A DNA stretch of 64,000 nucleotides, taken from contig JAHFMV010000002.1 of NCBI GenBank assembly GCA_023267655.1, positions 7,228 to 71,227 of the forward strand, given 5' to 3'. The translations under genes were made by a program, and so were the position numbers. This document shows positions 32,351 to 51,548 of this stretch, one piece after another; the first letter of the stretch is position 1, and every line of letters starts with the position of its first letter. Origin of the DNA: Candidatus Kaiserbacteria bacterium (GTDB taxonomy: Bacteria; Patescibacteriota; Minisyncoccia; Phycocordibacterales; UBA2100). The notes beneath the pieces were generated by a model that worked only from the letters and a program-made list of their open reading frames with translations, made no database searches and was not told the origin of the DNA.

Positions 32351-32658
32351 TCCGCGGTGGCGCAACGGTAGCGCAGCTCGCTGTCGAAGGCAGCTTCTTA
32401 GAGGAATCTAAGAATGCAAACGAGGAGAATTGCTGGAAGCCCGAACTTGAAATAGTGGGTAATCAGCAGCCGAGCTCACGAAAGTGAGAAGGTTCAGAGA
32501 CTATCCGAAAGGAGTAGTCCCATGAGATAGGCACAGCCGCCATCTCACGGGACGAAGCACCTCGCACCCAGAACGGGTGATGATATAGTCCACCCCCTTT
32601 GGAAACATTGGGACAAAGTGTAACGAGTTGGTTGTAGGTTCGAATCCTACCCGCGGAG
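32351..32658 (+). tRNA. tRNA-Asn (anticodon GUU) interrupted by a group I intron in the anticodon loop.
   Basis: 5' exon 32351-32384: TCCGCGG acceptor, D-arm GCGC-AACGGTA-GCGC, anticodon stem GCTCG, loop CTGT. 3' exon 32621-32658: TAA, CGAGT, variable TGGTT, T-arm GTAGG-TTCGAAT-CCTAC, acceptor CCGCGGA, discriminator G. The spliced anticodon loop is CTGTTAA. Confidence 0.7.
32385..32620 (+). ncRNA. Group I self-splicing intron within tRNA-Asn.
   Basis: P-like AATTGCTGGAA, Q-like AATCAGCAGCC, R-like GGTTCAGAGACTA and S-like GATATAGTCC elements are present. The IGS GCAGC sits 6 nt into the intron and can pair with the exon end GCUGU. The intron ends in G. Confidence 0.7.
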
Positions 32659-34245
32659 CTCGGTTGGATGATGTGCGAATGCAAGTACCGTGTCAAACGG
32701 TTTTCGCAGCGTAAACTCTAGCGTTTTTTCGTTTACGGTCGGGTTCTGAAGTAAATACCCCAAAATTGTCCTTTTCTCATCAGGTTCAGAACTTTCGAAG
32801 ATTTCACCCATGCGGCGGGACAAGTCGAGGACAGTGCCAACGTGGGTGTGATACTGATGATCCGCCTTTGTGTATGCTTCTAATTCCGCGTTCAAACGGT
32901 ACTGTTCTTCCTTCAATTCCTGCAACTTATTGTCGTAGTCTTCCTGTGTAATACCCATGTCGAGACGCATATCAAGCAGTGCGTTGACCTTGCGCTGCGC
33001 TCTATCGTATTCGCCACGAATGCGTGCTATTTGCCGCTCATGGTACACAGCTTCGTGCTCATTGAGCTCACGAAGTTCTGCCACCAGCCTTTCCTGCACC
33101 TCATGCGGAATCATCTTGAAAGCATCAAATACGGCGTGTACTGGTTCCAAAAGCTTTTTCTCTGGGACATAGTCTCGCTTGCATATCCCTTTCGCATTTG
33201 TACAGGAATAATAAATGAATTTACCTTTCTTTATTTCGGGACTCAGCATGCAACCGCAGTTGTTGCAGCGCAAAAGACCTTTCAACACATATGGCTTTGA
33301 AAGAAGCTTTGAGCGACGGGTGCTTCTACCGCGAAGCACGTCCCGACATTCTTGGAACAAATCAGGTGTAATGAGCTTCGGGTACTTGTGAGGATATTCG
33401 CCATATTTTTTTGATACCGCCATGCCGCACAAAAACGTGTCTTTAAGCATCAGCTCTATATTGCTTCGTGATAACTTTTGCCCCTTAAGACCGCGTAAAC
33501 CCATGCGATCAGCCTCTTTCCACAACGTTGTTATGGAATAGCCACCTGTAGCGTACATTTCAAACAATTTACGTATGATAGGAGCGCGTACCTCATCGAG
33601 AATAATATCGGTTTCGATTACCTCGCCCTTCTCGTTTCGCCGCTGCTTTCGGACGTAGCCGATGCGGGGGTTTCCTGTCCACTCACCAACTCGCCGCTTC
33701 TGCTCGAATGCTCGTTTTACATTATCGCTGATCGCGTTCGAATAATACTCAGCAAGGTTCAGACTGATGCCGAATTGGAATTTACTATTTGCGGTTCCAT
33801 CGCCGTTTATAACTTGATTGTCCGAGGCGAAATGTAATTCGATTTTCCCACTTCTCGCCAATTCGCACAGTAACGCCACCCGTTTATCGAAGACGTTGCG
33901 TGAAAAACGATCTACCTTATCGAAGCACACAGCGACCTTTTCGAACTTCGCCCTTGCCTGTATATACAGCAAAGCTTCGTCGAACACGTCTCTCTTTTCC
34001 TTGTACGCACTTTCGTCAAAACTAAACACTTTCTCGACCTCAAACCCCTTACGTCGACAGTGATTTTTCATTCGCTCGATCTGTGCCGGCAAAGAATTAC
34101 CTGCTTCCTGCTGCTCTGCCGTGGACACTCTGGCGATATTGATTGATTTCATTGTGTTTTCTTTAATTTTACCCCATATCCGCGACGCGAAGTCACGTAA
34201 AATGGCTGATAACTTTTCAAGGATGCTGTCATTTTTTTGAACCAC
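32647..34245 (-). CDS. Large serine recombinase (integrase); the likely start is MKSINIARVST, near 34152.
   Basis: An N-terminal resolvase domain with catalytic Ser (ARVST) and DRFSRN, followed by a recombinase domain, a zinc ribbon (CNNCGC...CTNAKGIC) and a coiled coil. The last codons and stop overlap the tRNA-Asn 3' end. Confidence 0.85.
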   Translation of the reverse strand: MVQKNDSILEKLSAILRDFASRIWGKIKENTMKSINIARVSTAEQQEAGNSLPAQIERMKNHCRRKGFEVEKVFSFDESAYKEKRDVFDEALLYIQARAKFEKVAVCFDKVDRFSRNVFDKRVALLCELARSGKIELHFASDNQVINGDGTANSKFQFGISLNLAEYYSNAISDNVKRAFEQKRRVGEWTGNPRIGYVRKQRRNEKGEVIETDIILDEVRAPIIRKLFEMYATGGYSITTLWKEADRMGLRGLKGQKLSRSNIELMLKDTFLCGMAVSKKYGEYPHKYPKLITPDLFQECRDVLRGRSTRRSKLLSKPYVLKGLLRCNNCGCMLSPEIKKGKFIYYSCTNAKGICKRDYVPEKKLLEPVHAVFDAFKMIPHEVQERLVAELRELNEHEAVYHERQIARIRGEYDRAQRKVNALLDMRLDMGITQEDYDNKLQELKEEQYRLNAELEAYTKADHQYHTHVGTVLDLSRRMGEIFESSEPDEKRTILGYLLQNPTVNEKTLEFTLRKPFDTVLAFAHHPTELRG

Positions 34246-35291
34246 TCATCTGCTCTCATGCCTCTTAAGCGCGGCGCTGTCGTATTGAATTTACGTGCAA
34301 AGCGAGACCACGTTCGCGCGTTCACGAAGGCATCAAGCACGATGCGGAGCTCACGCATACCACCGCAATTACGCGCAAGCATGATGAGACCAACGAGCTC
34401 TATAGCTTCTGCCGCTTTTGCTGGATGCGTCGCCAGTACTTTATACAGCACGTGCTTTGCAGATCTTTTAGGTCCGAATATGACGCCGCGCCAGTTTAAT
34501 GTCGCCGCATCCCAGTAATCGCGAAGGATCGTTTGGCTCTTTTGCGATGAAAAGACATCGGAAAACGCGGGATTCATCCCGAAACCGTGCCGCGCGAATA
34601 CAGCGTTTAACTTTACCCTAGCCGTGAGTTGTACCTCAAAGCGAAGGATATTTTGCCCGCGCAATCTGGCGGCAAGTCTTGTCTGTGCCTGTTGCCACTT
34701 TTTGCCTCTGCCCGTTTTTTTTGATAGTTCAGCCACCTTGTCATAGAACGTGAACGAATGCTGACTCGCCGTCGCCTTGAGACCCTGACCACCATTGCGA
34801 TAGTGCGTGTATGACACATCAACACCTCGGCGGACCATCAGCTTTTCCAGCTCTTTCATGACCCCCGTAATGGGTGCGCGTTTCCCAAGCAAGACATTTT
34901 TGGAATAATCTACCCGCATGATCTTCGCATTTCGAATCTCTTTTGCCGTGAGGTCGATCCCCATCATGCTTAGCCGAGATTGCAGAACCGAAAGAACCAC
35001 GTCGAAATCCGCATCAACCACTTCGTCCACATTATTGCCGTAAAGCAGCTTCGGAACAGAGAACTGGATCTTAATCCTTGATGTCACCCCATGCTTCTTA
35101 CTCATGTTGTTTACCCCTGTAATTTGCGGGAAATAGTGCTCGCTTCCACGCTCTTCCTTGGAGGGATCACGATAAAAGGTCTCATATCCTTTCCCTCGCG
35201 TACCGCCATCCCACATCGGTCTGCCTTTGGTGTCCACATCGCGTGCCGTTAAATTTCCTTGCGACACCGCGAGAATAACAGTGTCGATCAT
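34149..35291 (-). CDS. Putative rolling-circle replication initiator (Rep_trans / phage gene II-like).
   Basis: RVDYSKN and FTFYDKVAE motifs resemble the Rep_trans RxD..D and YDK signatures. It is adjacent to iteron-like repeats. Confidence 0.4.
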   Translation of the reverse strand: MIDTVILAVSQGNLTARDVDTKGRPMWDGGTRGKGYETFYRDPSKEERGSEHYFPQITGVNNMSKKHGVTSRIKIQFSVPKLLYGNNVDEVVDADFDVVLSVLQSRLSMMGIDLTAKEIRNAKIMRVDYSKNVLLGKRAPITGVMKELEKLMVRRGVDVSYTHYRNGGQGLKATASQHSFTFYDKVAELSKKTGRGKKWQQAQTRLAARLRGQNILRFEVQLTARVKLNAVFARHGFGMNPAFSDVFSSQKSQTILRDYWDAATLNWRGVIFGPKRSAKHVLYKVLATHPAKAAEAIELVGLIMLARNCGGMRELRIVLDAFVNARTWSRFARKFNTTAPRLRGMRADEWFKKMTASLKSYQPFYVTSRRGYGVKLKKTQ

Positions 35292-35482
35292 ACGGGCTGT
35301 CGCTCTGTATACAGATGCGAATTAACCCGCCTATCAATTCGGAGAAGCAGATCGTAGAGGCGTACAAGATTTCTCTCGCCGCTAAAATCATCTAATAACG
35401 CAGCAATGGCTGCACTTTTCTCGATTCCGCGCGGCTGCGGATCGCGGGACGCATTGTGCATCCCGATTTCTTTCTCGCTCAT
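35288..35482 (-). CDS. Small hypothetical protein upstream of rep.
   Basis: 64-aa ORF overlapping the rep start by 4 nt. Confidence 0.25.
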   Translation of the reverse strand: MSEKEIGMHNASRDPQPRGIEKSAAIAALLDDFSGERNLVRLYDLLLRIDRRVNSHLYTERQPV

Positions 35483-35600
35483 AGTGAGCTCTGTCGTTTA
35501 CACCCACAGGATCGCGTAAAACGCGCCCTACAGGTTGCGAGATAGGAAGTGGCGGGTCGGACTAGACCCCATCACGCCAAATAATGGCTTTAGACATCAT

Positions 35601-35701
35601 TTGACTACGTTGTGCCGCTTATTCGTACACCACTTCGGTACGAAATACATATTGAAACGCTTTGTTGCGGGATTTTCCCCGCCTTTGTGCCGCTTTATTC
35701 A
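35601..35701. repeat. Iteron-like direct repeats TTGTGCCGCTT(T)ATTC, followed by an AT-rich stretch; candidate origin.
   Basis: Two copies 85 bp apart (35601.. and 35686..), then the AT-rich run caatttatttttatttacttattcc at about 35780. Confidence 0.35.
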
Positions 35702-36207: not shown

Positions 36208-36212
36208 CTGAC

Positions 36213-37352
36213 CTATTCTTTGTGTTCGACGATAAATTTTGCTCGCTGATACAGCTCGTCAAAAGTGAGAATGTCGATGCCATGAATCGACTTGCGAAAT
36301 CGTTGAAAAGTCTCCCGCTTGCTCCGGCTGTCGAGCTGCGAGAGCGAGCCAACCACGATGATTCCTTTCGGCTGAACCGTATAAACGCCTCTACCTTCCA
36401 GCTCGTCTCTGTTGTCCGGCTGCTCTGACCCCGACTTGTCCCACGTCGCCATGTTAGCTTCGATTTGGGACACCGCATCAGTTAACTCTTTCGACAAGCT
36501 CCATGCCCCCGCTCTGATTTCCACGCTACCCTGCAACAGCGGGGTTGCCGGCGTCTTTATTTCAACGAGGACTGTGAAATCTATGTCGCCCGTCGTGGAG
36601 GTAAGGTAATCGCCCTTCTGTCCTCCTTTACCATCCACGCGCGTGCCACCATAATGAGGCTGCGCCTGTTCCTGTTTGAGGATTTGGTAGTTAAGACCAT
36701 AGCCAAAAATCCATTTGTTTTTCTCAAAAAAGCCCTGCCACTCACTCTCCGCGCGGGGAAGCGTTTCGAGCGCTTTTTCAAATCGCTCAAGCACGTCGCG
36801 CCGTTTGAGAAGCTGGTTTATATCCTCATCCGACAACTTTACCTCCGCTGCAGACGAGAGTTTCTTGATGATGCTCACCACGCTCTCCGTATCGCGACCA
36901 CGCAAAGCGGCGACAATCTCCGCTTCGCCCTGCGATATGAGCGAAAAAGCGCCCTGCGGTATCTCTATATCGCGCAAGGATTGCAGGAATGAAATGAGTT
37001 GCCAAAAATTCTCGTGGCATTCCTCCAAACTAACGTTCGCTTTGAGCACGTAAGTGTTTTCCTCGATAGCCCCGCTTTCTTCGAAGATCTTTTGACTTTT
37101 GTCTCGTATGGAGAACGCGAGGCGCGGGGTGAATTTTTCGCCCTTCTTGATGAGGGACACTTTGCAGACGTAGCTCACGCGCGGGCGTTCGTGCAGCACA
37201 AACTGCGTAATCAGCCGTCTTTGCTGGGTGTGGTAGAAGTAGTAAAAGTTATCGACTGCCGGCGCAGAGTTGATCTGGAGGTGGGCAAAGTCATGTTTAC
37301 CAATGACGAAATCCTCGCCATCGCTCCACCCAATAAGCTCGCTGAATTTCAT
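36213..37352 (-). CDS. Shedu-like DUF4263 PD-(D/E)xK nuclease-domain protein.
   Basis: C-terminal GDIDFTVLVEIKTP (D...EIK PD-ExK motif) and GIIVVGS. The size of about 380 aa matches SduA. Confidence 0.5.
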   Translation of the reverse strand: MKFSELIGWSDGEDFVIGKHDFAHLQINSAPAVDNFYYFYHTQQRRLITQFVLHERPRVSYVCKVSLIKKGEKFTPRLAFSIRDKSQKIFEESGAIEENTYVLKANVSLEECHENFWQLISFLQSLRDIEIPQGAFSLISQGEAEIVAALRGRDTESVVSIIKKLSSAAEVKLSDEDINQLLKRRDVLERFEKALETLPRAESEWQGFFEKNKWIFGYGLNYQILKQEQAQPHYGGTRVDGKGGQKGDYLTSTTGDIDFTVLVEIKTPATPLLQGSVEIRAGAWSLSKELTDAVSQIEANMATWDKSGSEQPDNRDELEGRGVYTVQPKGIIVVGSLSQLDSRSKRETFQRFRKSIHGIDILTFDELYQRAKFIVEHKE

Positions 37353-37354: not shown

Positions 37355-37885
37355 GTGAGGGCTTTCAACATAGCACTTCCCGCCCTTGCAATAAAGCAAG
37401 GAGACAGAGGGCTCCCGTGCTATATTGTGCGGCATATGAAGACGACGGGCGTCGTGCTGGCAGGCCTATTCTCGATTTTGCTCGTCTTGATTATCCTCAA
37501 ATTGATGGGCTACAGCTTCAATAAAGACTACTTCAGCTTTGATAAGCAGCAGTGCATCGCGAGCGAGGATGAGACCCGCGCAGGCCATTCAGGTATACAG
37601 GGGTGCATATTTTGGATGAGAAACGATTACTTGGAAAAAACGCAGTCGTGGAAAGACGAGTTTGCAAAAGACACAGACTACTGCAATGAAAAATACGGAG
37701 GAGATACCACAAAGGCCGCAAGCTATGCGGGGTTCAAATCACTGAGCGACCCAAGATGCAACTATGGTCCATTTACGAACCAAAAACGGCAAGAAAACTG
37801 GGCATACCTCGTTTCAAAAGAACAAGACGGATTTTACGCATATTGTGTCGAACAAATCTGTCCCGACCAACGCCTTTTCAAATAA
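37355..37885 (+). CDS. Membrane-anchored cysteine-containing hypothetical protein; the likely start is MKTTGVVLAG.
   Basis: An N-terminal TM helix, then a Cys-containing extracytoplasmic domain. Confidence 0.4.
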   Translation: MRAFNIALPALAIKQGDRGLPCYIVRHMKTTGVVLAGLFSILLVLIILKLMGYSFNKDYFSFDKQQCIASEDETRAGHSGIQGCIFWMRNDYLEKTQSWKDEFAKDTDYCNEKYGGDTTKAASYAGFKSLSDPRCNYGPFTNQKRQENWAYLVSKEQDGFYAYCVEQICPDQRLFK

Positions 37886-37943: not shown

Positions 37944-38288
37944 ATGAAATTAGAAACATTTTTTGGATTGCAGAAAGAAGTACAAGAGTGCGTGGAAAAG
38001 TTTAATTTCAACTGGACTAACTATGTGCAATACATCCACCTTGTTGAAGAGGTAGCGGAATTGGGGGAAGCGCTCACAGTGCATCAGGGAGACAGAAAAG
38101 CTGGTTCTGGTGAAAATGCATTAGCCGACCACCACGACACAAGGGAAGAATTGGGGGATGTTTTATTTAATGTGATACAGATAGCAAATCAGTTAAATCT
38201 CAATCTTGATGAGGTAATGGAGGAAACTTTTGCACGATACGAGGAAAAGTTAAAAAGGCTTAAGAATCAGGCTGAGACGTCCGCATAA
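37944..38288 (+). CDS. MazG-like nucleotide pyrophosphohydrolase.
   Basis: EEVAELGEA and EELGDVLFNV, the all-alpha NTP-PPase motifs. Confidence 0.65.
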   Translation: MKLETFFGLQKEVQECVEKFNFNWTNYVQYIHLVEEVAELGEALTVHQGDRKAGSGENALADHHDTREELGDVLFNVIQIANQLNLNLDEVMEETFARYEEKLKRLKNQAETSA

Positions 38289-39931
38289 AGCACAGACGCG
38301 GGGAGTACGTGGACGAAGGTGCGATAATCCCCTATACAATCAGCACAGTCATGAAGGAGGATAGTGCCGGAATGTAAGCCAGCTCCTTCACCGCTGCTGC
38401 CCACGCTTGAGTTCTGAACTCGTCCAGCCTGGGGAGCCCAGACTTGGATTGACTTGAATTCGCCGGTTATCGAATCGGGATTTTGGCGCGCGGCGCGAAG
38501 CGCCGCGTAGAGAGGATGCGCCGTGCCGGAGATTTTTTGATTGTAGAGTTGCAGGTTCGAGCCGAAGATTTTTTGAATTGCGGATTTTTTGGCGGGGAGA
38601 GAGGGGTTGCTTGGGATTTCAGCAAGGTTTTCTGCCTCCTTTATCCACTCACGCATGGGTTCGAGCCACGCGCTGCCGTCCCGCTCCAAACGCACAATTT
38701 GTTCCAATAACGTCCGCTTGTGGGACAACAGTGCGCGACGCTTCGCCAAGTATGCGTCGCGCTCAATTTCCTGCGCAATATAGAGATCCAAAACGCGGTC
38801 GAGTTTGCGGTCTATTTCGTTCATTTCGTCCCGTAAGCCAGAAATTGTCTGCGCGCTTGTGCGCTCCGCATCGCGTTCATCCACTTGCGTTCTGCGCCCG
38901 AAGTCGTGCGCCCATTCGGGCGGCAGGACAAAGAGCGAAAGCAGATTCGAAATATCAGTAACGAGATTTTCTTCACGCACGTAGGATTGCGTGCAGTGAA
39001 TCGACTTTTTTGTGCAGCGATAGTAAACATATCGGTGAAAATTGCCGTTCTTTTGGTGTTTCTCACGCACCTCGGCCGTGATAGCCATGCCACATTCACC
39101 ACACGACATGAGACCGCAAAATACTTGCGGCTGTGTCGTCGCGGCTTGCGGATGCCCTCGTTCGACAACTACTTTTTGTACTTTATCGAACAGCCGCTTG
39201 TCCACGATTGGCGTATGACGTCCCTCATATAGTTCGCCCATGTAGAGAAAAAGACCGCAATAAAACGGATTGGTGAGAATGAATTTCACGCGGTCGTCGT
39301 GGATACGATTACCGTATAAACTGCGCACTCCATTGTCGTAAAGAAACTTACCAATGTCTTCTACTCGCGAATTGCCTTTAGAATATTTCTCAAACGCGGC
39401 CTGAATTATTTTCGATTTCTTCTTATCAAGCATGATTGTTTTAGTGCGCGGATCGTTTCGATACCCCACCGGCGCAGTACCCGGGAAATCACCGCGCCGC
39501 GCTTTCGCGCGAAGCCCTCGCGCAGTGTTCGCGCTCAATTGTCGGATATATTCATTTGCCATGCCGAATTCAACCGACATGATGAGCACATTGTCCTGCG
39601 GCAAATACGTCCGATCGTGGGTTCGTATTTGCTGGATGATTCCCTGTTGCAATAGCCAGCTAATTTGTCCACTGTCCACGGGATTGCGCGAAAGTCGATC
39701 TATCTTCCAACACAAAATGCCCTGCGCCTCGCCCTTTTGGAGTCGCGCCATCATCTCGCTGAACACGGGGCGGCCGGGCATCTTCGCCGAGCGCTTTTCT
39801 ACAAACTGCTCGACTATTTCTAGCCCCTCCCGCAGCGCGAGCGCGTACAACTCTGACAACTGCGCCTCGATAGATAGGACTTGCTTGTCCTCGACATCAG
39901 TGCTTTTGCGGGCGTAGAGGAAATATTTCAT
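38267..39931 (-). CDS. Large serine recombinase (second copy, with a different sequence).
   Basis: YARKSTD...DRLSRN resolvase domain, a recombinase domain, a zinc ribbon and a coiled coil. Its C-terminal coding region (38444-38616) is one arm of a 173-bp inverted repeat. Confidence 0.85.
   Translation of the reverse strand: MKYFLYARKSTDVEDKQVLSIEAQLSELYALALREGLEIVEQFVEKRSAKMPGRPVFSEMMARLQKGEAQGILCWKIDRLSRNPVDSGQISWLLQQGIIQQIRTHDRTYLPQDNVLIMSVEFGMANEYIRQLSANTARGLRAKARRGDFPGTAPVGYRNDPRTKTIMLDKKKSKIIQAAFEKYSKGNSRVEDIGKFLYDNGVRSLYGNRIHDDRVKFILTNPFYCGLFLYMGELYEGRHTPIVDKRLFDKVQKVVVERGHPQAATTQPQVFCGLMSCGECGMAITAEVREKHQKNGNFHRYVYYRCTKKSIHCTQSYVREENLVTDISNLLSLFVLPPEWAHDFGRRTQVDERDAERTSAQTISGLRDEMNEIDRKLDRVLDLYIAQEIERDAYLAKRRALLSHKRTLLEQIVRLERDGSAWLEPMREWIKEAENLAEIPSNPSLPAKKSAIQKIFGSNLQLYNQKISGTAHPLYAALRAARQNPDSITGEFKSIQVWAPQAGRVQNSSVGSSGEGAGLHSGTILLHDCADCIGDYRTFVHVLPASVLYADVSA
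38444..38616. repeat. Inverted repeat IR1, copy 1, inside the recombinase 3' coding region.
   Basis: Near-identical to the reverse complement of 40929-41113. The two copies are confirmed by shared peptides PSLPAKKSAIQKIFGSNLQLYNQK... on opposite strands. Confidence 0.7.
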
Positions 39932-40080: not shown

Positions 40081-40884
40081 TTAAGTGAGAAATATCTTTC
40101 CATATCCATCAATTCTCCCGTTATAGAGGTGGCGATTATATTTTTCCGCTACGGCCTTGCAAAGTTGTTGACCATAACTACCCCCCGGACTATCGACTTT
40201 TCCTTTTGCGTGTAGAAGTTCCATGCGGCATGGATAAGCAAGAATGTCGGCAATTTGTAATCCCGTAACATTCGCACTTTTCGGCTGGATCTTTATTTCT
40301 TTCGTAGTTAGAGAATTTTGAAAGAATTCCGGCTTACGAAAATTTGTACCGCTCTCCCACACGTTTTGGTATGCTTCTTTGAGCTGCATATCTTCACGAC
40401 CGCCGCGACTTTCCGCCATCACATCACCCTTAGCATTGTAATAATTGAGAAATCCGCAGTAGCGCTCGAGTAGTGCAACAACGCAATAGTGATATGGATG
40501 TAAGGCTATATTGCCGTACCTTTTCACATGAGCATTTTTATCAATTACAACCGTCAACAGCTTAAAGTCGTACTTTTTCAGAGTGACTAAAAAATCGTCG
40601 TTAAAAGCTCTTTCTTTTGCCGGATCTAGTAGTCGCCAAAACGGGCCTTTTTTATTGATGAGCTCTTTACGATGAAGAATGACGGGTTCGTCCGGATTAT
40701 GCGGAAAATGTCGCTCTTTAAATTCTGTGAAGTCAGGATGGATGACTTTTTTATAGTAGTCGTTTTCAACAATAACACCTGTGATGCCCAAATACCGACT
40801 TACCACGTTATCTTCATTGCGCGAATACACGTGATCTCCGGCCTCATCGAGATAAAGTCGATAGCGTTTTACATCCATGGGCAA
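40081..40884 (-). CDS. DUF3800-family protein.
   Basis: N-terminal YRLYLDEAGD (DEAG/DESG-type motif) and a length of about 270 aa. Confidence 0.5.
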   Translation of the reverse strand: MPMDVKRYRLYLDEAGDHVYSRNEDNVVSRYLGITGVIVENDYYKKVIHPDFTEFKERHFPHNPDEPVILHRKELINKKGPFWRLLDPAKERAFNDDFLVTLKKYDFKLLTVVIDKNAHVKRYGNIALHPYHYCVVALLERYCGFLNYYNAKGDVMAESRGGREDMQLKEAYQNVWESGTNFRKPEFFQNSLTTKEIKIQPKSANVTGLQIADILAYPCRMELLHAKGKVDSPGGSYGQQLCKAVAEKYNRHLYNGRIDGYGKIFLT

Positions 40885-40928: not shown

Positions 40929-41113
40929 GCATGGATTCCGTATCCCCTCTCTCCCCGCCAAAAAATCTGCAATTCAAAAAATCTTCGGCTCGAACCTGCA
41001 ACTCTACAATCAAAAAGTCTCCGGCACGGCGCATCCTCTCTACGCGGCGCTTCGCGCCGCGCTCCAAAATCCCGATTCGATAACCGGCGAATTCAAATCA
41101 ATCCAAGTCTGGG
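40929..41113. repeat. Inverted repeat IR1, copy 2.
   Basis: Reverse complement of 38444-38616 with a few mismatches. Read on the plus strand it continues into IR2 and would give an alternative recombinase C-terminus, ...QVWAQLYQIARTYFSKHDE*. Confidence 0.7.
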
Positions 41114-41382
41114 CTCAACTATACCAAATAGCTCGAACCTATTTTAGCAAACATGATGAGTGATCGGACACGCGCCGCGTGAGTGGTGACGTGTCCCAAC
41201 AAGGTACGCTCCGCGTCCGTGCCAACTCTGACGCCGCCCGCCGCAGCAAAGCTGCGGCAACCCCGAAAGAAACCGCTTCCCATGCATCTCTGTTCGGCGG
41301 GGGTGGGATGCGTATTGAAATGGAATGGGCGGTTTCTTTCGGGGTTCTGCCCTGTGGGCAGGGGGCGACAAACCCCTCAATC
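41113..41382. repeat. Inverted repeat IR2, copy A (about 250 bp), followed by a 14-bp-stem palindromic hairpin at 41383-41415.
   Basis: Identical 80-aa translations on opposite strands (41139..41384 minus and 44817..45059 plus) show this is a DNA inverted repeat. The hairpin is AAACCCCTCAATCA-CCCAG-TGATTGAGGGGTTT. Confidence 0.7.
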
Positions 41383-41467
41383 ACCCAGTGATTGAGGGGT
41401 TTGAATTACTGCGAGTTAGCTAGAGCGCGTATTTGTAAAAAGTCTCGAACGTTGTTAGATTAGGGAA

Positions 41468-42025
41468 ATGTCTCCAAATATGAATACTCGCTTAGGTATT
41501 CTCAACATTGTCCCGATAAAAGAGCGCCCGGAATTGCTCGCGGAGCCAGTGGCCAAAGCCATTTCAAACTTGTCGGACGCTGACACAATTGGAGTAACAG
41601 AAATCGATCCACGGTTATCTGATACCACCGCATTTTGTGCGCAATATCAAGTTGATATGAATCGAACCGTTAATTGCGTCGTACTTGAGGCAAAACGAGG
41701 CGATCGCACATGGTTTGCGACGGCCGTTATTTTCGGTGACACTCGTGCTGACGTGAATGGTCTTGCACGGCGCACTCTTGAAGCTCGCAAGGTATCATTT
41801 GCGCCCATGGATCAAGCTGTGGCACAAACAGGAATGGAGTACGGAGGAATTAGTCCTATCGGCATTCCAGCTGACTGGCCTATTCTCATTGATAAGGCAG
41901 TTGCTGATTCGGAATATGTGATTGTTGGCAGCGGTATACGGAAATCCAAGCTCGTGATTCCAGGTAAGATTCTTGCTGCTTTACCAAATGCGAAAGTACT
42001 GGAAAGCCTCGGTCAGAAAAAATAA
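41468..42025 (+). CDS. YbaK/ProX-family aminoacyl-tRNA deacylase (free-standing editing domain).
   Basis: EYGGISPIGIP matches the YbaK GGxSPxG motif. About 185 aa. Confidence 0.55.
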   Translation: MSPNMNTRLGILNIVPIKERPELLAEPVAKAISNLSDADTIGVTEIDPRLSDTTAFCAQYQVDMNRTVNCVVLEAKRGDRTWFATAVIFGDTRADVNGLARRTLEARKVSFAPMDQAVAQTGMEYGGISPIGIPADWPILIDKAVADSEYVIVGSGIRKSKLVIPGKILAALPNAKVLESLGQKK

Positions 42026-42066
42026 GGGCCAGCGAAGTGTTCGCCAGCCCTTCTGCACGCGACCGA

Positions 42067-42855
42067 TCATCGTGTCAAGAGATTCTCCGATTCTACACTG
42101 AGTCTCTTCGCCGCACTTTCGCCGTTCACCACTAACTCCAGCCAACGATGAGTGCCGAAACCAGAACTTCCGACAACCCAACTTAGATTTTTGGGAGTGA
42201 CGTCCGCGAGTTGCTCGGAAAAATCGAGATCTGCGAAACGTGTCAGATTTCTTTCTCCTTTCAAGACAGTCGTCTTGCAGTTGCCGAAAGGATCGTCGAC
42301 ATACCAGACGGCAAGTGGTGCATCGGGCACGACATCTCGTACCTGCATCTTTTGCCCAGGCACTTTCCATCGTGCCGCAATCCACAGAGCAACGCGAGGC
42401 AAGAATTCATAACTCCTAAACTGCGTTGTAGTTACATTCTCTGCTTCAGAGGAAGAAATAAGACGTTTCTTCACCGCCCACTTCATCACCGTCGGAATAT
42501 CGAGAACATGCATTGTCTCTGCGAGTTGAAGTTTTTTTACAAGCGAGAGCGTTTGGCCAGCGACGGTTGACACGAGGAGTGTCTTACCGATGTAGATATA
42601 ACAAAACGGCGTGCCGTTCGGCCATTTTTCTCGCAAGCCATTACGAGGCGCCACGTTCGCAAGCAAAATTCCTTCGCCACCATTACAACGCGCTGCGTCA
42701 AGTGCGTCGACGATATGTCCCGCAGCTTCGAGGTCGTTACGCGCCCCAATGACTTGCGGCAAGAGACCGCAAAGAGACTGAACGCGAAGCGACTGTCGCC
42801 CTGCGGCGTTTCGGCAATCACAATCTGTCACAATGCCAAAGAACTGTATCTTCAT
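42067..42855 (-). CDS. DUF62 / SAM hydroxide adenosyltransferase-like protein (SAM hydrolase family), divergent N-terminus.
   Basis: C-terminal VWYVDDPFGNCKTTV matches the IDxFGNxxTN motif, and GSSGFGTHRWLELVVNGESAAKRL matches the DUF62 C-terminal domain. N-terminal motifs are weak. Confidence 0.45.
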   Translation of the reverse strand: MKIQFFGIVTDCDCRNAAGRQSLRVQSLCGLLPQVIGARNDLEAAGHIVDALDAARCNGGEGILLANVAPRNGLREKWPNGTPFCYIYIGKTLLVSTVAGQTLSLVKKLQLAETMHVLDIPTVMKWAVKKRLISSSEAENVTTTQFRSYEFLPRVALWIAARWKVPGQKMQVRDVVPDAPLAVWYVDDPFGNCKTTVLKGERNLTRFADLDFSEQLADVTPKNLSWVVGSSGFGTHRWLELVVNGESAAKRLSVESENLLTR

Positions 42856-42922
42856 GACCTATCCTTTCGGGCCACTTGCTGCCGAGGACCATTCCTCGAC
42901 AGGATAACGACCCCAAAAAAGA

Positions 42923-42950
42923 AAACCCTCCGCGTTTGCGGAGGGTTTTC
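42923..42950. terminator. Strong bidirectional rho-independent terminator AAAACCCTCCGC-GTTT-GCGGAGGGTTTT.
   Basis: A perfect 12-bp stem flanked by A- and T-tracts. It lies between the Met-rich leader ORF and the DUF62 gene start. Confidence 0.65.
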
Positions 42951-42976
42951 GTGAGATTCTTTTTTTCAAAATTACA

Positions 42977-43048
42977 TCATACGAAATGTTCCTCCGCGCG
43001 AAGGGTCATCATGGCCATCATCATTGCTGCGCGAAGATGCGTATGCAT
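42977..43048 (-). CDS. Candidate Met-codon-rich leader peptide MHTHLRAAMMMAMMTLRAEEHFV.
   Basis: 23 codons with 6 ATG codons clustered at positions 9-14, followed 27 nt later by the terminator. Codons 18-20 (GCGGAGG) duplicate the terminator 3' arm and could form an antiterminator. Confidence 0.35.
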   Translation of the reverse strand: MHTHLRAAMMMAMMTLRAEEHFV

Positions 43049-43165
43049 ATGTCGATGATATCGAGATTTGGAGAGCTGTCAATAGCGGGAGGGCGAACAA
43101 GGACTCTGCATGTTGAATAATGCTACCCTTATGGGTGTGGCGGGAACGTTGTACTATGAGCAGTC

Positions 43166-43678
43166 ATGATTAGAACGGCTAAAATAAGTGACATCGCTCG
43201 GCTTGTTGATATTGATTCTGCAGCCTATGGTTCGTACGGAGCTGACAGGGGCTACTTCGAAGAAAAGTTTGCTTCCGATAATGTGGGCATTCTTGTCGTC
43301 GAAGAAGCTGGGGATGTTAGCGGTTTTTGCGTTTTTGAGATTCTGAGATCGAATCAAATTCCGCCTGATTTTTGCGATTTGAAATTGAGAAAACCACTGG
43401 AAGATACGTGGACACATATTATTGCGTTTACAACGTCAACCAACTATATCGACCTTGAGTCGGATGGTCAGCTGGTTCGAGCCGTAGAAGAAAAAGCGAA
43501 AATCATGGGATCTGATATCTTTTGTGTCCCATTAAGTGTAGAACATCCTTTTGAAAAAAATGACGTCTTCGGCTTTTGGAAGAAGAATGGCTATGAGCGT
43601 GCGGGAACTATCAAGTGGAAAGCCAGTTCGAATGAACTCATTGAGTGTTATTTTTATTGCAAACTCGGCGCTAGATGA
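43166..43678 (+). CDS. GNAT-family N-acetyltransferase.
   Basis: About 170 aa with an acetyl-CoA binding-like core (VVEEAGDVSGFCVFE). Confidence 0.55.
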   Translation: MIRTAKISDIARLVDIDSAAYGSYGADRGYFEEKFASDNVGILVVEEAGDVSGFCVFEILRSNQIPPDFCDLKLRKPLEDTWTHIIAFTTSTNYIDLESDGQLVRAVEEKAKIMGSDIFCVPLSVEHPFEKNDVFGFWKKNGYERAGTIKWKASSNELIECYFYCKLGAR

Positions 43679-43717
43679 TCGAAAACATATCGCCCATAGA
43701 TAGGCTAAAATACGGTA

Positions 43718-44227
43718 ATGGCAGATGACCCAGTCCCACAACCCGTTGAAAGCCCTCAAACACCGGTATCTGACGGGTTAGCGAATGTGCTGATTCCAGA
43801 GCCAGTTTCGGAGCCGACGTCGGAAGCGTCGGCGAGCGCTCCGAGCGAACCGGCGCAGCCGGTGAGCGATGCTGCGGAGGTCGCGGCGGAGCCGCAGAGT
43901 GAACCACCAACGCCAGAAGCAAAACCACAAACGCAATCAGCGACGTCAGCCGCGTCTGCGCCAAGCCTGATTTCCGATAAGACACCCGAGCACGACCGTG
44001 AACTCCTGAAAATCGCGAGAGCGAAAATTCAGACAAAGAAGAGCGAGAAACTGGAGAAAATCATGATGCTGTTTGAGAAGAAAAAGGAAGTCACGAATGA
44101 TGACGTTGAGAAATTGTTGCGTTGCTCCGACGCGACAGCGCGGAGGTATTTGAACGAACTCGTGAAGCAAGGAAAACTCAAGCGCGTTGGTGAGACTGGT
44201 GCAGGCGTCGCGTATATCAAAGCGTGA
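43718..44227 (+). CDS. Acidic/Pro-rich protein with a C-terminal winged-helix HTH.
   Basis: C-terminal DDVEKLLRCSDATARRYLNELVKQGKLKRVG. Confidence 0.4.
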   Translation: MADDPVPQPVESPQTPVSDGLANVLIPEPVSEPTSEASASAPSEPAQPVSDAAEVAAEPQSEPPTPEAKPQTQSATSAASAPSLISDKTPEHDRELLKIARAKIQTKKSEKLEKIMMLFEKKKEVTNDDVEKLLRCSDATARRYLNELVKQGKLKRVGETGAGVAYIKA

Positions 44228-44334
44228 GCTTTGAAATTGAATTTGCATCTAGAGAGTGCCGCGAGCATGTGCAACTTGCTCGCGGCGAGATATGTGCGCG
44301 CATGGGGGGGGGTTGGGGCAAGCACGGGGATTCG

Positions 44335-44704
44335 GGCCTCGGGCATTTCCGCTAGGGCAAGGCCCTTCGGTGAGCGCCGCCGAAATCTTGGAATGGAGAA
44401 GTGTTAGAAGCGGAAGCGACACCACGAAAGCAATCTTGGAAACGAGGAGAGGGGTTGTGCGATGGGCGGACTCCGAAGGCCCGTTAATGCGAGCCATACA
44501 AGTCTGTATCACCATGACCAGAGGACACAACGATAGTGGTTGTGTTACAGCTGCGAGGAGGAGACCGAGCTGGGGAGAGGATTCCTTCCTCTCCCCAATC
44601 AGAAACGGCGCCCGAGCCAGAGAGCCCGCAGGCGATACTGGCGAGGAGAAGCGCCGTACCGAGGCATCTAGGCGCGAGCAGCCCTAGCGGAAATGCCCGA
44701 GGCC
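44335..44704. mobile_element. MITE-like non-autonomous element with 24-bp perfect terminal inverted repeats.
   Basis: TIR GGCCTCGGGCATTTCCGCTAGGGC at 44335-44358 and its reverse complement at 44681-44704. The 322-bp interior is structured and non-coding, for example the GGGGAGAGGA-TTCC-TTCCTCTCCCC hairpin. Confidence 0.45.
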
Positions 44705-44799
44705 GGATGGCCGAGTGGTGCACCCCGTTGGACTTTGCCCTAACCGATAGCGATGACTGAGGCTCAATATGCATTTGCATTCCGTATTTGCATTGAACC

Positions 44800-45076
44800 A
44801 ATCAAATACCGGGTAAATGATTGGTTCCCGCCGCCCCCTGCCCTTGGGCAGAACCCCGAAAGAAACCGCCCATTCCATTTCAATACGCATCCCACCCCCG
44901 CCGAACAGAGATGCATGGGAAGCGGTTTCTTTCGGGGTTGCCGCAGCTTTGCTGCGGCGGGCGGCGTCAGAGTTGGCACGGACGCGGAGCGTACCTTGTT
45001 GGGACACGTCACCACTCACGCGGCGCGTGTCCGATCACTCATCATGTTTGCTAAAATAGGTTCGAGCTATTTGGTA
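44800..45076. repeat. Inverted repeat IR2, copy B, with an inner-side 10-bp-stem palindrome at 44794-44824.
   Basis: Reverse complement of 41113-41382. The hairpin is GAACCAATCA-TTTACCCGGTATT-TGATTGGTTC. Confidence 0.7.
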
Positions 45077-45152
45077 TAGTTGAGCAGATTTCTTAGCTTT
45101 ATCTTGCAAGGCATTTTTAGGTCCCCTTGTTGGACGCTCGAACCTAAATTTG

Positions 45153-45416: not shown

Positions 45417-45540
45417 TTCAGCTCACCAGCGGAAAGTCCGCTTCGGTGGGCTTTCTGTTTTAGTAACTCGGAATGTGTAGGTATGGATTATTCTGGAAAT
45501 AGGTTCTAACGTCGTCCACGACGCGGACTTGAATTAGCAC

Positions 45541-46543
45541 CCTAATTGCAACCGGTGCGCCTTCGCCAAAACACACGCCTCGGACTCACAAAGCCGAGGC
45601 GCTTTCTTTGTCGATCGTTGAGACGACGAACAATGTGTGCGAGTTCTGCTGGGGTGATCAGATTGAAGTCGAGTGTCTTCGGAAAGTACTGTCGGAGAAG
45701 TCCATTCGTATTCTCGTTGGTACCGCGCTCCCACGCATGGTACGGGTAGGCGAAGTACACGGTCATGCCGGTCTTCTTCTCAAGGCGCTCCCAATCGCTG
45801 AATTCGATGCCGTTGTCGAGTGTGAAGATCCTGCGTTTCTTCTTTGGAATATGTCGGAAGTGTTCTAGTGCGAGTGAGGTGAGAAGTCGCGACCTCATTT
45901 TGGGAAGCACGAACGCAATGAGGTATCCGCTCCTTCGGTCGACGAAAGAAACGATACGCACGCGCTTGTCTCTTCCCATTAAGGTATCTCCTTCCCAGTC
46001 TCCGATCCTTCCGCGTTTTTGGACGATCGCTGGACGTTCGTCAATGCGTCGTTTCTTCCCTTGTTCTCGGGCTTTTTCACGTATCTTCGTACCGCGCTTT
46101 CTGCGGTATTTGCCCTTTGATGATCGGAGGTACTGCTTCAGGTGTGGTGCACGTTCTTTGAGGTAGCGGTATATCGTACTTGCAACAAGTGACCCACCAC
46201 GCTTTCTCAGAACACCAGCAATCTGCTCGGGCGACTTGTGGAGCTTCAATTCTTTCGTCATGAACCGCAGCAGGGAGCCACGGATCACACGAATGCCCTG
46301 CATTGCATCGACACGCTTCATGTGCTTCCTTCGTCGCACCTCTCGCACGTCGTATCCGTTTCTTCCTCCGTAATCCTTCACGTGCCTCCCCAGTGAACTT
46401 TTGTCTTTGCCGATGGTCCGGGCAATCTCGCTCAGCGAATGACCAGCTCGCAGCATCCGTGCAATGCACGACCAATCCTCCTTCCCAATGTGTGTATGTG
46501 CCATCTTGGCACTGTGAATGCCTCGCGGGGGGTTGCAATTAGC
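45541..46543 (-). mobile_element. IS30-family insertion sequence.
   Basis: Terminal inverted repeats CCTAATTGCAACC (45541-45553) and GGTTGCAATTAGC (46531-46543), flanking a single IS30 transposase gene. Confidence 0.65.
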
Positions 46544-46549
46544 CTGCAA
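45542..46549 (-). CDS. IS30-family DDE transposase; the likely start is MAHTHIGKEDW, near 46504.
   Basis: An N-terminal HTH, plus the catalytic motifs DNGxEF and NTNGLLRQYFPK. Confidence 0.8.
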   Translation of the reverse strand: MQANCNPPRGIHSAKMAHTHIGKEDWSCIARMLRAGHSLSEIARTIGKDKSSLGRHVKDYGGRNGYDVREVRRRKHMKRVDAMQGIRVIRGSLLRFMTKELKLHKSPEQIAGVLRKRGGSLVASTIYRYLKERAPHLKQYLRSSKGKYRRKRGTKIREKAREQGKKRRIDERPAIVQKRGRIGDWEGDTLMGRDKRVRIVSFVDRRSGYLIAFVLPKMRSRLLTSLALEHFRHIPKKKRRIFTLDNGIEFSDWERLEKKTGMTVYFAYPYHAWERGTNENTNGLLRQYFPKTLDFNLITPAELAHIVRRLNDRQRKRLGFVSPRRVFWRRRTGCN

Positions 46550-46677
46550 ACTTCGGTGCAGTTAGCGTGCGAATTCACCGGAGAAAGTTTGACTATTTAC
46601 CGCAGATATGTTATATACATTCCTAGAAGCAGATTTCTAGCTTCTGATGTTTTTCTGTTGACCCAGGAGATCACACG

Positions 46678-50101: not shown

Positions 50102-50289
50102 GGTTCTCTCTCCTTCTCTATGGCTACAAGAAACCTGTTAAGAACAGGGCTGCACACAGCATATCGTGAAAATAGACAAAATCCATCTTGAAAGAAAGCG
50201 CTGGAACATTCACCGTGACATGCGGTCCATGCTGCTGGGTCGGCTGTATACATCGATGAAAACGACTGGCTATGGTATACTGAAAATCC

Positions 50290-50520
50290 ATGTCCAACAT
50301 CACTTCAGATAACGCAATACGCTTCGGCACGCCTTGCATCGCGGGAACGCGCATTAGTGTCGCCGACGTCTTGGGATATATTTCGGCTGGCGATTCGCTC
50401 GAGACGATTATCGCCAATTTCCCGGAATTGACCGAGGAAAAAATTCGCGCGGCGCTCAAATATGCTTCGGACGTTTTGGGCTCGACGTCCAGCGCCGTGC
50501 ATGAAATTCCTGCTCGATAA
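50290..50520 (+). CDS. DUF433-family protein (antitoxin-like).
   Basis: GTPCIAGTRISVADVLGYISAGDSLETIIANFPELTEEKIRAALKYA matches the DUF433 consensus. Confidence 0.55.
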   Translation: MSNITSDNAIRFGTPCIAGTRISVADVLGYISAGDSLETIIANFPELTEEKIRAALKYASDVLGSTSSAVHEIPAR

Positions 50521-50821
50521 CCATATCCCGCGGCGGGTGACGGAAGTGCTGGCTGATTCCGCTACTGTGCGCGACGTCCTCTCCGCCGATGCATCCGACA
50601 CGCGTATTTACGAATGGTGCCGTGAGAGCAAAGTCGCGGTTTTTGTTACGAAAGACAAGCAATTCGCCTGGAGAATCGCAGCCGATGGAACTAATCTCAA
50701 GTGCATTTTGTGCATGTATGGCAACATATCTCTGCAAGAAACCGTCGATCTTTTCGCCGCCAACAAATCGCGGATCGAGTATTTCGCGAAATCTCCGCTG
50801 AAAGTCCTCGAGTTGTTGTAA
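50462..50821 (+). CDS. DUF5615-family PIN-like protein (toxin-like); the likely start is MKFLLDNHIP at 50501, overlapping the DUF433 stop.
   Basis: MKFLLDxxLP N-terminus. The two genes are arranged as an overlapping pair. Confidence 0.5.
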   Translation: MLRTFWARRPAPCMKFLLDNHIPRRVTEVLADSATVRDVLSADASDTRIYEWCRESKVAVFVTKDKQFAWRIAADGTNLKCILCMYGNISLQETVDLFAANKSRIEYFAKSPLKVLELL

Positions 50822-50853
50822 CTGCTGCTGTGAACGCAGCAGGACGAGGGGCA

Positions 50854-51063
50854 TCATCCGGTGAGCATCCTTCGCGCAGCAACAAATTCCCGCAACGCGT
50901 CAGCAAGATTTTCTTTTGCCTCGGCTTTTGTTGTTCCTTGGGTATTCACACCCGGGATTTCCTCAACCCACGCAACATACCCAGAGCGTACCTTTTTGTA
51001 TACGGCCGTTAACATATGCGGACAGCATAGCATACGTGATACAATCTCCGCATGATCGCACAC
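50854..51063 (-). CDS. HicB-family antitoxin-like protein; the likely start is MLTAVYKK.
   Basis: YVAWVEEIPGVNTQGTTKAEAKENLADAL matches the UPF0150/HicB core. No HicA partner was seen. Confidence 0.5.
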   Translation of the reverse strand: MCDHAEIVSRMLCCPHMLTAVYKKVRSGYVAWVEEIPGVNTQGTTKAEAKENLADALREFVAARRMLTG

Positions 51064-51447
51064 ACAGGACTTAATGTGACTCGGTACGCGCGTTCGAAGA
51101 AATTTTATGCGCAGTCGCTCAAGCCGCTCGGTTATAGCGTGCGGATGGATTTGCCGAAATGGAAAGCAGCCGGATTTTCAGACGGGAAAAATCTCGATTT
51201 TTGGATCGGAGAAAAGAAACGTGTTACTCCCATTCACGTTGCGTTTGAAGCGAAGAGTAAGAAACTGGTAGATGCGTGGTACAAAGCAGCACTTAAAGCC
51301 GGCGCGAAAGACAATGGCGCTCCCGGATATCGCGCCGATTATTGGGCAGGATATTATGCGGCGTTTGTCTATGATTTCGACGGCAACAATATCGAAGCGG
51401 TGTACTGGAATTACGCGAAAGCAGGAGAAAAGAAACCTAGGAGTTAG
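51052..51447 (+). CDS. VOC (glyoxalase/bleomycin-resistance) family protein.
   Basis: A single VOC-like domain of about 130 aa. Confidence 0.5.
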   Translation: MIAHTGLNVTRYARSKKFYAQSLKPLGYSVRMDLPKWKAAGFSDGKNLDFWIGEKKRVTPIHVAFEAKSKKLVDAWYKAALKAGAKDNGAPGYRADYWAGYYAAFVYDFDGNNIEAVYWNYAKAGEKKPRS

Positions 51448-51548
51448 GTGAAAATCGCGACGGCACATCTTTGTTCGTCGTGGGTTGACAAGAGCTATTT
51501 CAATGCTAAAGTACGTACGGTGCAACGCTAACAACGTTAGAGGTTCTG

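Follow-up and report, generated by a model that had tools for sequence, protein, structure and literature searches.

What has integrated at the 3′-end of the tRNA-Asn gene in this stretch of Candidatus Kaiserbacteria DNA, and where does the inserted DNA end? The window, the whole 64,000-nt stretch of contig JAHFMV010000002.1 analysed here, contains a large serine recombinase gene (LSR1) that reads into a tRNA near 32.6 kb, and the original prediction, made from the letters alone, had drawn a single island from that tRNA to about 51.5 kb. We found no support for such a unit. The composite island is 12.4 kb long (32656-45085) rather than a single 19-kb unit, and it is made up of two tandem serine-recombinase elements, followed by an independent IS30 insertion. 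Element 1 (32656-38437, 5.8 kb) carries LSR1, a rolling-circle replication initiator (Rep), Shedu and MazG; element 2 (38438-45085) carries a second large serine recombinase (LSR2), a DUF3800 gene and further cargo, and sits exactly at the far junction of element 1. We put at about 0.78 the probability that two small integrative elements stand in tandem here, at the 3′-end of a tRNA-Asn(GUU) gene that contains an intron, and that the genome is of a Patescibacteria (Paceibacteria-type) organism.

The tRNA-Asn already suspected at the end of LSR1 was identified as tRNA-Asn(GUU), split by an intron that had gone unmentioned. Neither ARAGORN nor the Rfam tRNA model reported a tRNA in the raw sequence near 32.6 kb, because a group I intron splits the anticodon loop at positions 35/36. 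The RF00028 model matched 32374-32612 with 62.2-64.8 bits (gathering score 50), and the P1 helix is GCUGU/GCAGC, a U.G pair marks the 5′ splice site, and the last intron nucleotide is G. Joining the exon sequences restored the 7-nt anticodon loop, and the joined sequence was called by ARAGORN as tRNA-Asn(gtt), with U1-A72 and discriminator G. The covariance match, the U.G, the terminal G and the restored loop identify the insert, by sequence, as a group I intron. The tRNA allele of an independent assembly (L001, 1992-2027) joins 32384 directly to 32621, the intron being precisely absent at the predicted splice junctions, and its exons and the adjoining recombinase are 100% identical to those of the window; this polymorphism suggests recent gain or loss. 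Group I introns in Patescibacteria tRNA genes have been described and shown to self-splice, and their horizontal transfer is considered limited (PMC13011429). The intron found here resembles them in host gene, insertion site, approximate length and the cause of tRNA-finder misses; it differs in that an intron-less allele with identical exons exists beside the same element, and the paper never mentions neighbouring recombinases. The intron signature was present in 12 of 54 tRNA-Asn genes beside recombinases of the LSR1 family. Intron-split tRNAs conceal such attachment sites from standard island finders, which matters for annotation.

We then considered the recombinase itself. The longest open reading frame (ORF) of LSR1 is 32647-34245, with the most likely start at 34152 (MKSINIARVSTAEQ), which overlaps the Rep stop codon (ATGA). 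As had been proposed, the gene terminates inside the tRNA: it reads ...HPTELRG* through 32647-32672, its final 12 nt lie within the tRNA 3′-end, and its last three codons and stop (...ELRG*) are read from the tRNA. LSR1 matched Pfam Resolvase at 2.3e-18, with Recombinase and Zn_ribbon_recom above their cutoffs. Replacement of the catalytic Ser, with loss of activity, had been raised as an argument against an integrative element; the Ser, in RVST, is intact. In an alignment of 24 family members, R8, S10 and the Cys cluster (C296, C299, C301, C317, C324) show no variation. Judged from their domains and motifs, LSR1 and LSR2 are both assigned to the serine integrases.

The linkage of LSR1 to tRNA genes holds across a large family. 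More than 1500 homologs were found at 55-66% identity, and where named they are proteins of metagenome-assembled genomes of Patescibacteria/Paceibacterota; in a scan of one representative genome per GTDB species, at least 368 species had a relative. Of the 80 loci retrieved for analysis, 66 adjoin a tRNA: 42 overlap an intron-less tRNA-Asn, 12 face an intron-type tRNA-Asn, and 12 lie at tRNA-Gln, Leu, Asp or His. Together with eight relatives bearing both attL and attR, an identical copy in a second genomic context and the intact Ser, the 54/80 loci at tRNA-Asn and 12/80 at other tRNAs bear out the claim that LSR1 is the integrase of an element at the tRNA-Asn 3′-end. The family consensus C-terminus, ...PNWLRG*, is what the reverse complement of CCA and the acceptor stem encodes, and 86 of the 120 closest homologs end in tRNA-encoded residues, 57 stopping in the T-stem and 29 reading on to the anticodon-loop TAA. 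The read-through ORFs span the whole T-arm, and the anticodon-loop TAA (TTAAC) serves as their stop codon; they occur in about 1/4 of homologs (among them loci L003, L005, L007 and L009 and proteins P0009, P0021 and P0027) and have tails such as ...GWDSNPRPIG, encoded by GGATTCGAACC.

In 64 of 79 loci the recombinase gene is preceded, on its own strand, by a Rep homolog, which is the one window gene that accompanies it across the family. The interval separating the two genes has a median of 2.5 kb, with all genes co-oriented, and its 112 cargo ORFs include ~45 DNA methyltransferases, 12 ResIII proteins and several restriction endonucleases. The family carries mostly restriction-modification genes plus Shedu and other defence genes, which it appears to spread. 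In eight relatives in which the far end was found (L003, L017, L018, L029, L035, L041, L049 and L065), a host terminator hairpin is followed by the last 17-24 nt of the tRNA and then by the element, 3.8-10.4 kb from the tRNA.

Such a direct repeat of the tRNA 3′-end had also been expected at the right boundary in the window, where attR could not be located by eye. No second copy was found in the window, either exact or with up to 5 mismatches in 21 nt, all matches being at chance level. The attR had escaped notice because it consists of an attP-type arm (38404-38433) plus GAGC, with no tRNA repeat. Two contigs from one sample, independent assemblies of the same or a sister population, place element 1 in a second context (context B, against context A of the window). 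At the left, L001 matches the window at 100% identity in LSR1 and both tRNA exons, but its 88 nt upstream of the tRNA bear no relation to the window; at the right, L128 is 100% identical to window 37716-38437 and then diverges, and it has no LSR2. The presumed host flank beyond the core reads AGATTTCTTAGC in context A (the window, where it now follows element 2) and AAATTTGACAATTTGC in context B.

The arm at this divergence point has the features of an attP half-site. Read outward, this P arm forms an imperfect palindrome with the P′ arm, the last ~30 coding nt of LSR1 (32660-32690) (CTTGcaTTCgcACaTCaTCCAaCC versus CTTGagTTCtgaACTCgTCCAgCC, p ~0.02), and the centre of the palindrome falls within the GAGC core. 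A GAAC stands at +19 in the window P arm, in six attP-state relatives, none of which adjoins a tRNA, and behind an LSR2-like gene in locus L053, and at +14 in the tRNA arm; the +19 spacing is expected by chance at ~5e-4 of window positions. A 5-bp shift of the zinc-ribbon-domain (ZD) motif between attP and attB half-sites is established for the Listeria phage integrase (PMC3783163). By this geometry the tRNA arm would be a short B-type half-site, with the T-loop GTTCGAA 5 bp nearer the core than in the long P-type arm, and on the tRNA side the spacing is fixed, since all but one of 42 family loci have a TCGAA motif at a distance of 12 nt from the GCTC core. We conclude, as far as sequence can tell, that the 30 nt to the left of 38434 are an attP-derived arm and that element 1 spans 32656-38437; element 2 now stands between this arm and the host flank. 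Two earlier candidates were dropped on the way. The 38.4-kb arm had been considered a decayed, displaced tRNA-Asn fragment (15/17 matches to the L005 tRNA, p ~0.006); the attP-arm reading was preferred because it covers the 5-bp shift, the reading frame and the palindrome. A crossover in the T-loop, suggested by the repeat ends in relatives, was replaced by the GAGC core because GAGC is common to all junction forms, and the crossover dinucleotide would presumably lie within it. As this core takes up just the outermost 3′ nucleotides of the tRNA, the rest of the gene belongs to the host, and, contrary to the original reading, the element in the window copy does not rebuild the T-arm and acceptor.

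The attP of element 1 would thus lie inside the 3′-end of the LSR1 gene, so that integration is predicted to swap the C-terminal tail. When LSR1 was joined through the core to the 38.4-kb arm, the frame was kept and gave a protein of 532 aa with the tail LPRLDEFRTQAW (...TEL-PRLDE-FRT-QAW). This tail is in register with those of the attP-state relatives L051 (WL-ALTDD-FRT-IDW), L010 (GL-RALHA-FRT-AIW), L012 and L006, and with P0057 (...VLPTLDEFRTIDW) and P0100 (...WLPLLDKFRTLNW). By this reconstruction a conserved 33-aa tail is exchanged for three tRNA-encoded codons and a stop, and attP1 is predicted to read CATCATCCAACCGA GCTC CCCAGGCTGGACGAGTTCAGAAC, with the junction string ...CATCATCCAACCGAGCTCCCCAGGCTGGACGAG... 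The change of the integrase C-terminus upon integration offers a directly testable idea on direction control. More tentatively, the two predicted forms of the family enzyme (excised, 532 aa, with an LPxLD(E/K)FRTxxW tail; integrated, 501 aa, with a tRNA-encoded tail) might act as a built-in switch for recombination direction or expression state without a separate factor, and the family might be the main mover of restriction-modification and defence systems among Patescibacteria via a nearly universal tRNA 3′-end; we regard this as a speculative proposal that is rather less probable than its negation.

Element 2 appears to follow the same design. LSR2 matched Pfam Resolvase at 6.4e-21, with Recombinase and Zn_ribbon_recom above cutoffs and the Ser in YARKST (motif RKST); it is 27% identical to the LSR1 family and 36% to its homolog in L053. 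From 38433 downward its present tail is the element 1 P arm read out of frame, 55 non-conserved aa. A natural-looking tail, ...VWAQLYQIARTYFSKHDE*, is encoded at an inverted copy at 40944-41352, in which 'ART' comes from the T-loop-like GCTCGAACC at P-type distance. This copy consists of two arms, X and Y, which form the inverted repeats I2 (173 nt, 98%) and I1 (240 nt, 100%) with 38434-38606 and 44846-45085, respectively, and it reappears in L083 and L129, which were assembled independently; short-read assemblies cannot settle which way round the 3.5-kb stretch flanked by the 240-nt arms lies. The LSR2 3′-end thereby occurs in three junction forms that share GCTC: X-Y (40944-41352), X-element 1 arm (38.43 kb) and flank-Y (45082-45085), the last reading ...AAGAAATCT GCTC AACTATACC..., with the GAAC of the Y arm at +18. 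X-GCTC-Y would accordingly represent the LSR2 attP, built like that of element 1.

The three junctions are equally expected if attP2 recombined with the core of the element 1 attR or if element 2 was there first and element 1 integrated into its attL, since either order leaves X plus the element 1 P arm at 38.43 kb and host flank plus Y at 45.09 kb. Stacking of this kind recurs, because comparable arrays stand in L053, with the order LSR2-like / GCTC / identical 18-mer / Rep / LSR1-family / tRNA-Asn, and in L051, where the second recombinase lies between the family member and tRNA-Asn and adjoins the latter. In L012 (a 1.34-Mb contig), L051 and L053, an uninterrupted attP-state recombinase gene was observed in the chromosome with a second serine recombinase nearby, which suggests that attP-state members near second recombinases are passenger elements within tandem arrays.

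Given these junctions, a life cycle can be proposed. Element 1 would integrate by recombination of attP (P′-GCTC-P) with attB (tRNA-GAGC-flank) at the core on the tRNA acceptor end, which would turn the LSR1 gene toward the tRNA and replace the conserved tail (LPRLDEFRTQAW...) by tRNA codons. Excision would require LSR1 plus a directionality factor, after which Rep could drive rolling-circle replication of the excised circle, followed by transfer. The cargo would provide anti-phage defence, through Shedu here and restriction-modification in most relatives. Element 2 may have recombined at the same GAGC core, either with the element 1 attR or by receiving element 1 in its own attL.

Several observations weigh against this account of the locus. 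The P/P′ palindrome is only moderately significant by itself (rank 6 of 318 GAGC sites), and the window lacks the tRNA-fragment direct repeat seen in the eight relatives with a defined far end. An exact search of IMG/VR for the predicted attP1 and attB strings gave no match, and the predicted excised-form proteins were not in a collection of 15 billion proteins. Neither an excised circle nor an empty site was recovered: no close relative shares the left flank, and among 36 metagenome loci anchored on the neighbouring PAP2 gene (42-55% identity), none had tRNA-Asn or a shared neighbour. The two contexts may represent separate loci in related strains rather than two hosts; in exact-protein look-ups of host genes, the contexts were too fragmentary to place host A in or out of the context-B samples. 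For element 2, the complete inverted attP2 copy inside it fits no simple integration or inversion history, its right end was placed by junction logic and composition only, the post-core flank of L128 differs from the window flank at 45086, and a reaction of attP with attR or attL is non-canonical for a serine integrase.

The 38.4-kb arm invites another explanation, in which the X-GCTC-arm junction is the intact attP of LSR2 itself and a single element with two recombinases entered once by LSR1, with its far end at 45085 or beyond. X read outward does pair with this arm (score 15), the 18-mer CTGGACGAGTTCAGAACT stands identically behind the LSR2-like gene of L053, there in frame as LDEFRTY*, and two-recombinase arrays recur in L012, L051 and L053. 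The arm, however, pairs better with the LSR1 P′ arm (score 18) and continues the LSR1 frame into the conserved family tail, while the LSR2 frame gives a 55-aa non-conserved tail and the conserved-type LSR2 tail (ART...) is encoded by Y. Moreover, L128, which lacks LSR2, carries the arm and departs from the window precisely at the core, and we therefore consider a single two-recombinase element unlikely. The larger island of the original prediction, running to ~51.5 kb with the ParB-like, ClpX zinc-finger and toxin-antitoxin genes, draws on the accessory-type genes at 48-51 kb (ParB_N, DUF433/DUF5615, UPF0150), on the GC content at third codon positions (GC3) of ParB_N (z = -1.8), and on homologs of ParB_N and ORF 48629 near elements in L003, L041 and L044. 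In L003 and L041, those homologs fall outside attR, the genes at 43.7-48.6 kb are host-like in GC3 and codon use, the bounded relatives measure only 3.8-10.4 kb, no att-like feature was found near 51.5 kb in repeat and tRNA-fragment searches, and the junction analysis puts host DNA from 45086 onward; such an island is thus quite improbable.

The left boundary could in principle lie 5′ of the tRNA, with the whole tRNA-Asn as a replacement carried by the element and the overlap internal to it, as L001 diverges 2-3 nt upstream of the tRNA 5′-end with exons 100% identical. Identical exons are, however, expected between related hosts, and the intron differs between contexts despite an identical element; in the eight bounded relatives the duplication is confined to the final 17-24 nt of the tRNA, beside the host terminator, and the B-type versus P-type spacing marks the tRNA as the attB-derived arm. 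We give this idea the least credence of all. The gpII-type Rep and small size might instead point to an inovirus (filamentous-phage) prophage or satellite: Rep matches Pfam Phage_CRI, and inoviruses, some of which employ serine recombinases, have been reported in hosts of the candidate phyla radiation (PMC6813254). PHROG searches of the window and of unknown ORFs from five relatives returned neither pI/Zot nor coat nor other such matches, next to nothing of the family is present in IMG/VR (a single 57-aa fragment), and its cargo consists of restriction-modification and defence genes, making a phage origin highly improbable. The reading as two tandem elements, with the tRNA body as host DNA, is accordingly retained below.

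The enzymes share with known serine-integrase systems (phiC31, Bxb1, A118/LI, TP901-1, SPbeta, SCCmec Ccr) the Resolvase, Recombinase and zinc-ribbon domains with a Ser nucleophile, a pseudo-palindromic attP beside the integrase gene, and an outer motif 5 bp nearer the core in attB than in attP (PMC3783163), here read from sequence. LSR1 is nevertheless very distant from them, its only PDB match being the TP901-1 catalytic domain (E = 4e-4); its target is a tRNA 3′-end and not a protein-coding gene, its attP lies inside the recombinase ORF so that the C-terminal tail is swapped on integration, and its partner is a rolling-circle Rep rather than a phage genome. The word tRNA is absent from a systematic survey of large serine recombinases (PMC10083194). 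As in Islander-type tRNA islands with tyrosine integrases, the integrase gene adjoins an intact tRNA, a displaced 3′ tRNA fragment marks the far end (in eight relatives), and elements can be stacked in tandem at one tRNA; the differences are the serine recombinase, the window copy without a tRNA-fragment repeat, and the core at the extreme tRNA 3′-end. Actinomycete integrative and conjugative elements are likewise small (~10 kb), occupy tRNA genes and encode, besides an integrase, a plasmid-type initiator that is often of the rolling-circle kind. In the present elements the host phylum is another one, the integrase is of the serine type and Rep is of the Phage_CRI family, and no FtsK/TraB-type translocase was found among the window genes or the 112 cargo ORFs. 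In SSV-type archaeal integrases, which are tyrosine recombinases, attP lies within the int gene, and integration alters the ORF by splitting the gene in two. Here just the last ~33 codons would be exchanged, and the enzyme is a serine recombinase.

In the open-access literature searched, no tRNA-targeting large serine recombinases or Rep-plus-LSR elements were described for Patescibacteria, and the family is apparently undescribed so far. Few mobile elements are known for these reduced, episymbiotic bacteria, and this locus opens a family of at least 368 species with a simple signature: a Rep gene, cargo, and a serine recombinase reading into a tRNA. Its serine integrases use the tRNA 3′-end as attB, a target class normally tied to tyrosine integrases. 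With a short, clearly delimited and strongly conserved attB, and with an att geometry that is visible in the sequence alone, the enzymes should be easy to test, and they could become tools for organisms now without genetics.

The features of the locus are collected in Table 1. The Rep assignment has a Pfam match of 3.4e-8 (33.9 bits, cutoff 21.7) and a weak match to the PHROG 702 replication protein, and Shedu matches PADLOC PDLC00391 (SduA) at 8e-143 over residues 5-377 of 379, i.e., at full length. Among the genes listed earlier for the first 7 kb, Rep, the Shedu-like nuclease and MazG are thus present. The iterons are not, as Tandem Repeats Finder returned none and just weak, scattered 9-19-nt repeats were seen; the supposed HicB-like gene has no Pfam or PHROG match; and DUF3800 lies beyond LSR2. 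The 64-aa ORF that overlaps the Rep start, for which no Pfam or PHROG match was found, is a possible regulator or directionality factor, and the 149-aa ORF has no Pfam, PHROG or PADLOC family match. DUF3800 also occurs inside the related elements L017, L039 and L050. The cargo of element 2 between the Y arms occupies 41353..44845.

Table 1. Features of the tRNA-Asn locus and its right flank (window positions; empty cells, no entry)
Feature	Position	Strand	Basis
tRNA-Asn(GUU) 5′ exon (acceptor, D-arm, anticodon stem, C32-U35)	32351..32384	+	ARAGORN on spliced sequence; intron-less L001 allele
Group I intron of 236 nt at anticodon positions 35/36	32385..32620	+	Rfam RF00028
tRNA-Asn 3′ exon; T-arm + acceptor, putative B-type half-site of attL1	32621..32658	+	ARAGORN; L001 allele
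LSR1, large serine recombinase, 501 aa in integrated state	32647..34152	-	Pfam Resolvase, Recombinase, Zn_ribbon_recom
attL1 core GAGC (tRNA acceptor end, discriminator G, 1 further nt)	32656..32659		common to all junction forms; inferred crossover region
Rolling-circle replication initiator (Phage_CRI/G2P N-terminal domain, inovirus gpII type)	34149..35291	-	Pfam
64-aa ORF, 4-nt overlap with Rep start	35288..35482	-	gene call in independent assembly L083
Shedu (SduA) anti-phage nuclease, cargo	36213..37352	-	Pfam SduA_C 4.4e-32; PADLOC
149-aa ORF	37436..37885	+	gene call in L083 and L085
MazG-like nucleotide pyrophosphohydrolase, cargo	37944..38288	+	Pfam MazG 1.8e-8; GC3 z = -3.4
LSR2, large serine recombinase of element 2, 554 aa in its present form	38267..39931	-	Pfam
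P arm (38404-38433) + GAGC core (38434-38437), element 1 far end, attR side	38404..38437		L128 divergence, palindrome, GAAC spacing, in-frame tail
DUF3800 protein, cargo	40081..40884	-	Pfam 2.7e-12; GC3 z = -3.7
Intact inverted LSR2 attP copy (X 40944-41116, GCTC core, Y 41113-41352)	40944..41352	+	inverted repeats I2, I1; translation
YbaK-like tRNA_edit, element 2 cargo	41468-42025		Pfam; GC3 z = -3.7, though looked core-like
SAM_HAT-like, element 2 cargo	42067-42855		Pfam; GC3 z = -1.7
ORF, element 2 cargo	43166-43678		GC3 z = -3.7
Helix-turn-helix gene, element 2 cargo	43718-44227		Pfam
MITE-like inverted repeat I3, 27-nt terminal inverted repeats 96% complementary	44332-44707		repeat analysis
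Y arm + GAGC core (45082-45085), right end of element 2 and composite island	44846..45085	-	flank-Y junction
IS30-family insertion sequence, separate event	45534..46550	-	Pfam rve + HTH_38
IMP-cyclohydrolase-like gene	in 47-51 kb stretch		Pfam
ClpX zinc finger	48191-48559		Pfam
ParB_N	48929-50101		just above Pfam cutoff; GC3 z = -1.8
DUF433	50290-50520	+	Pfam 1.6e-22
DUF5615/PIN-like	50462-50821	+	Pfam 1.5e-14
UPF0150/HicB-like	50854-51063	-	Pfam

The second serine recombinase, the nested inverted repeats and the IS30 element listed for the right part of the island were all recovered by Pfam and repeat analysis, as was the miniature inverted-repeat transposable element (MITE), here a MITE-like unit. 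The ORF at 44256-44687 that overlaps this unit is probably no gene, because its GC is 0.61 and its codon-usage z is -3.9. The IS30 element has 20-nt terminal inverted repeats (I20, 45534-45553 and 46531-46550), and other assemblies break inside it. The ParB-like, ClpX zinc-finger, DUF433/DUF5615 and HicB-like genes at 48-51 kb are likewise present; 50290-51063 holds two toxin-antitoxin-like modules (DUF433 + DUF5615; UPF0150/HicB-like), and the longer minus-strand ORFs that overlap them (50124-50459, 50456-50857) are probably spurious.

The codon-usage shift proposed as a check was found in part. Five genes have GC3 z <= -3.4, all between 35.6 and 43.7 kb; the genes at 43.7-48.6 kb and most of those at 48.6-51.5 kb are host-like, and no shift marks 46.6-51.5 kb, so a right limit at ~51.5 kb finds no backing in composition. 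The 46.6-51.5 kb stretch appears host-like, with no sign of mobility in its sequence. The homologs of ParB_N and ORF 48629 near the attR of relatives were tried as a host-flank marker and dropped, as their orientation is inconsistent and the L021 homolog lies on the other side; a resemblance of the context-B flank to the window at 45.1 kb proved merely promoter-like. A second GAGTTCTG...CGTCCAGC...GGAGC motif was seen in L128 at ~1270-1300, ~590 nt beyond the junction, and the window flank at ~45130-45160 has GGACGCTCGAACCTAAATTTGACA, which has an 11-mer in common with the Y arm; these extra att-arm-like motifs may be fossils of earlier integrations.

Elsewhere in the window, four tRNA genes (Ala-GGC, Ala-CGC, Arg-CCG and Val-CAC) lie at 4999-10032 with no recombinase nearby. 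Just left of the PAP2 gene, 26953-31548 encodes a surface protein of 1531 aa, composed in part of MBG, Ig-like, HYR and peptidoglycan-binding domains, and surface proteins of this type plausibly serve host attachment by episymbionts.

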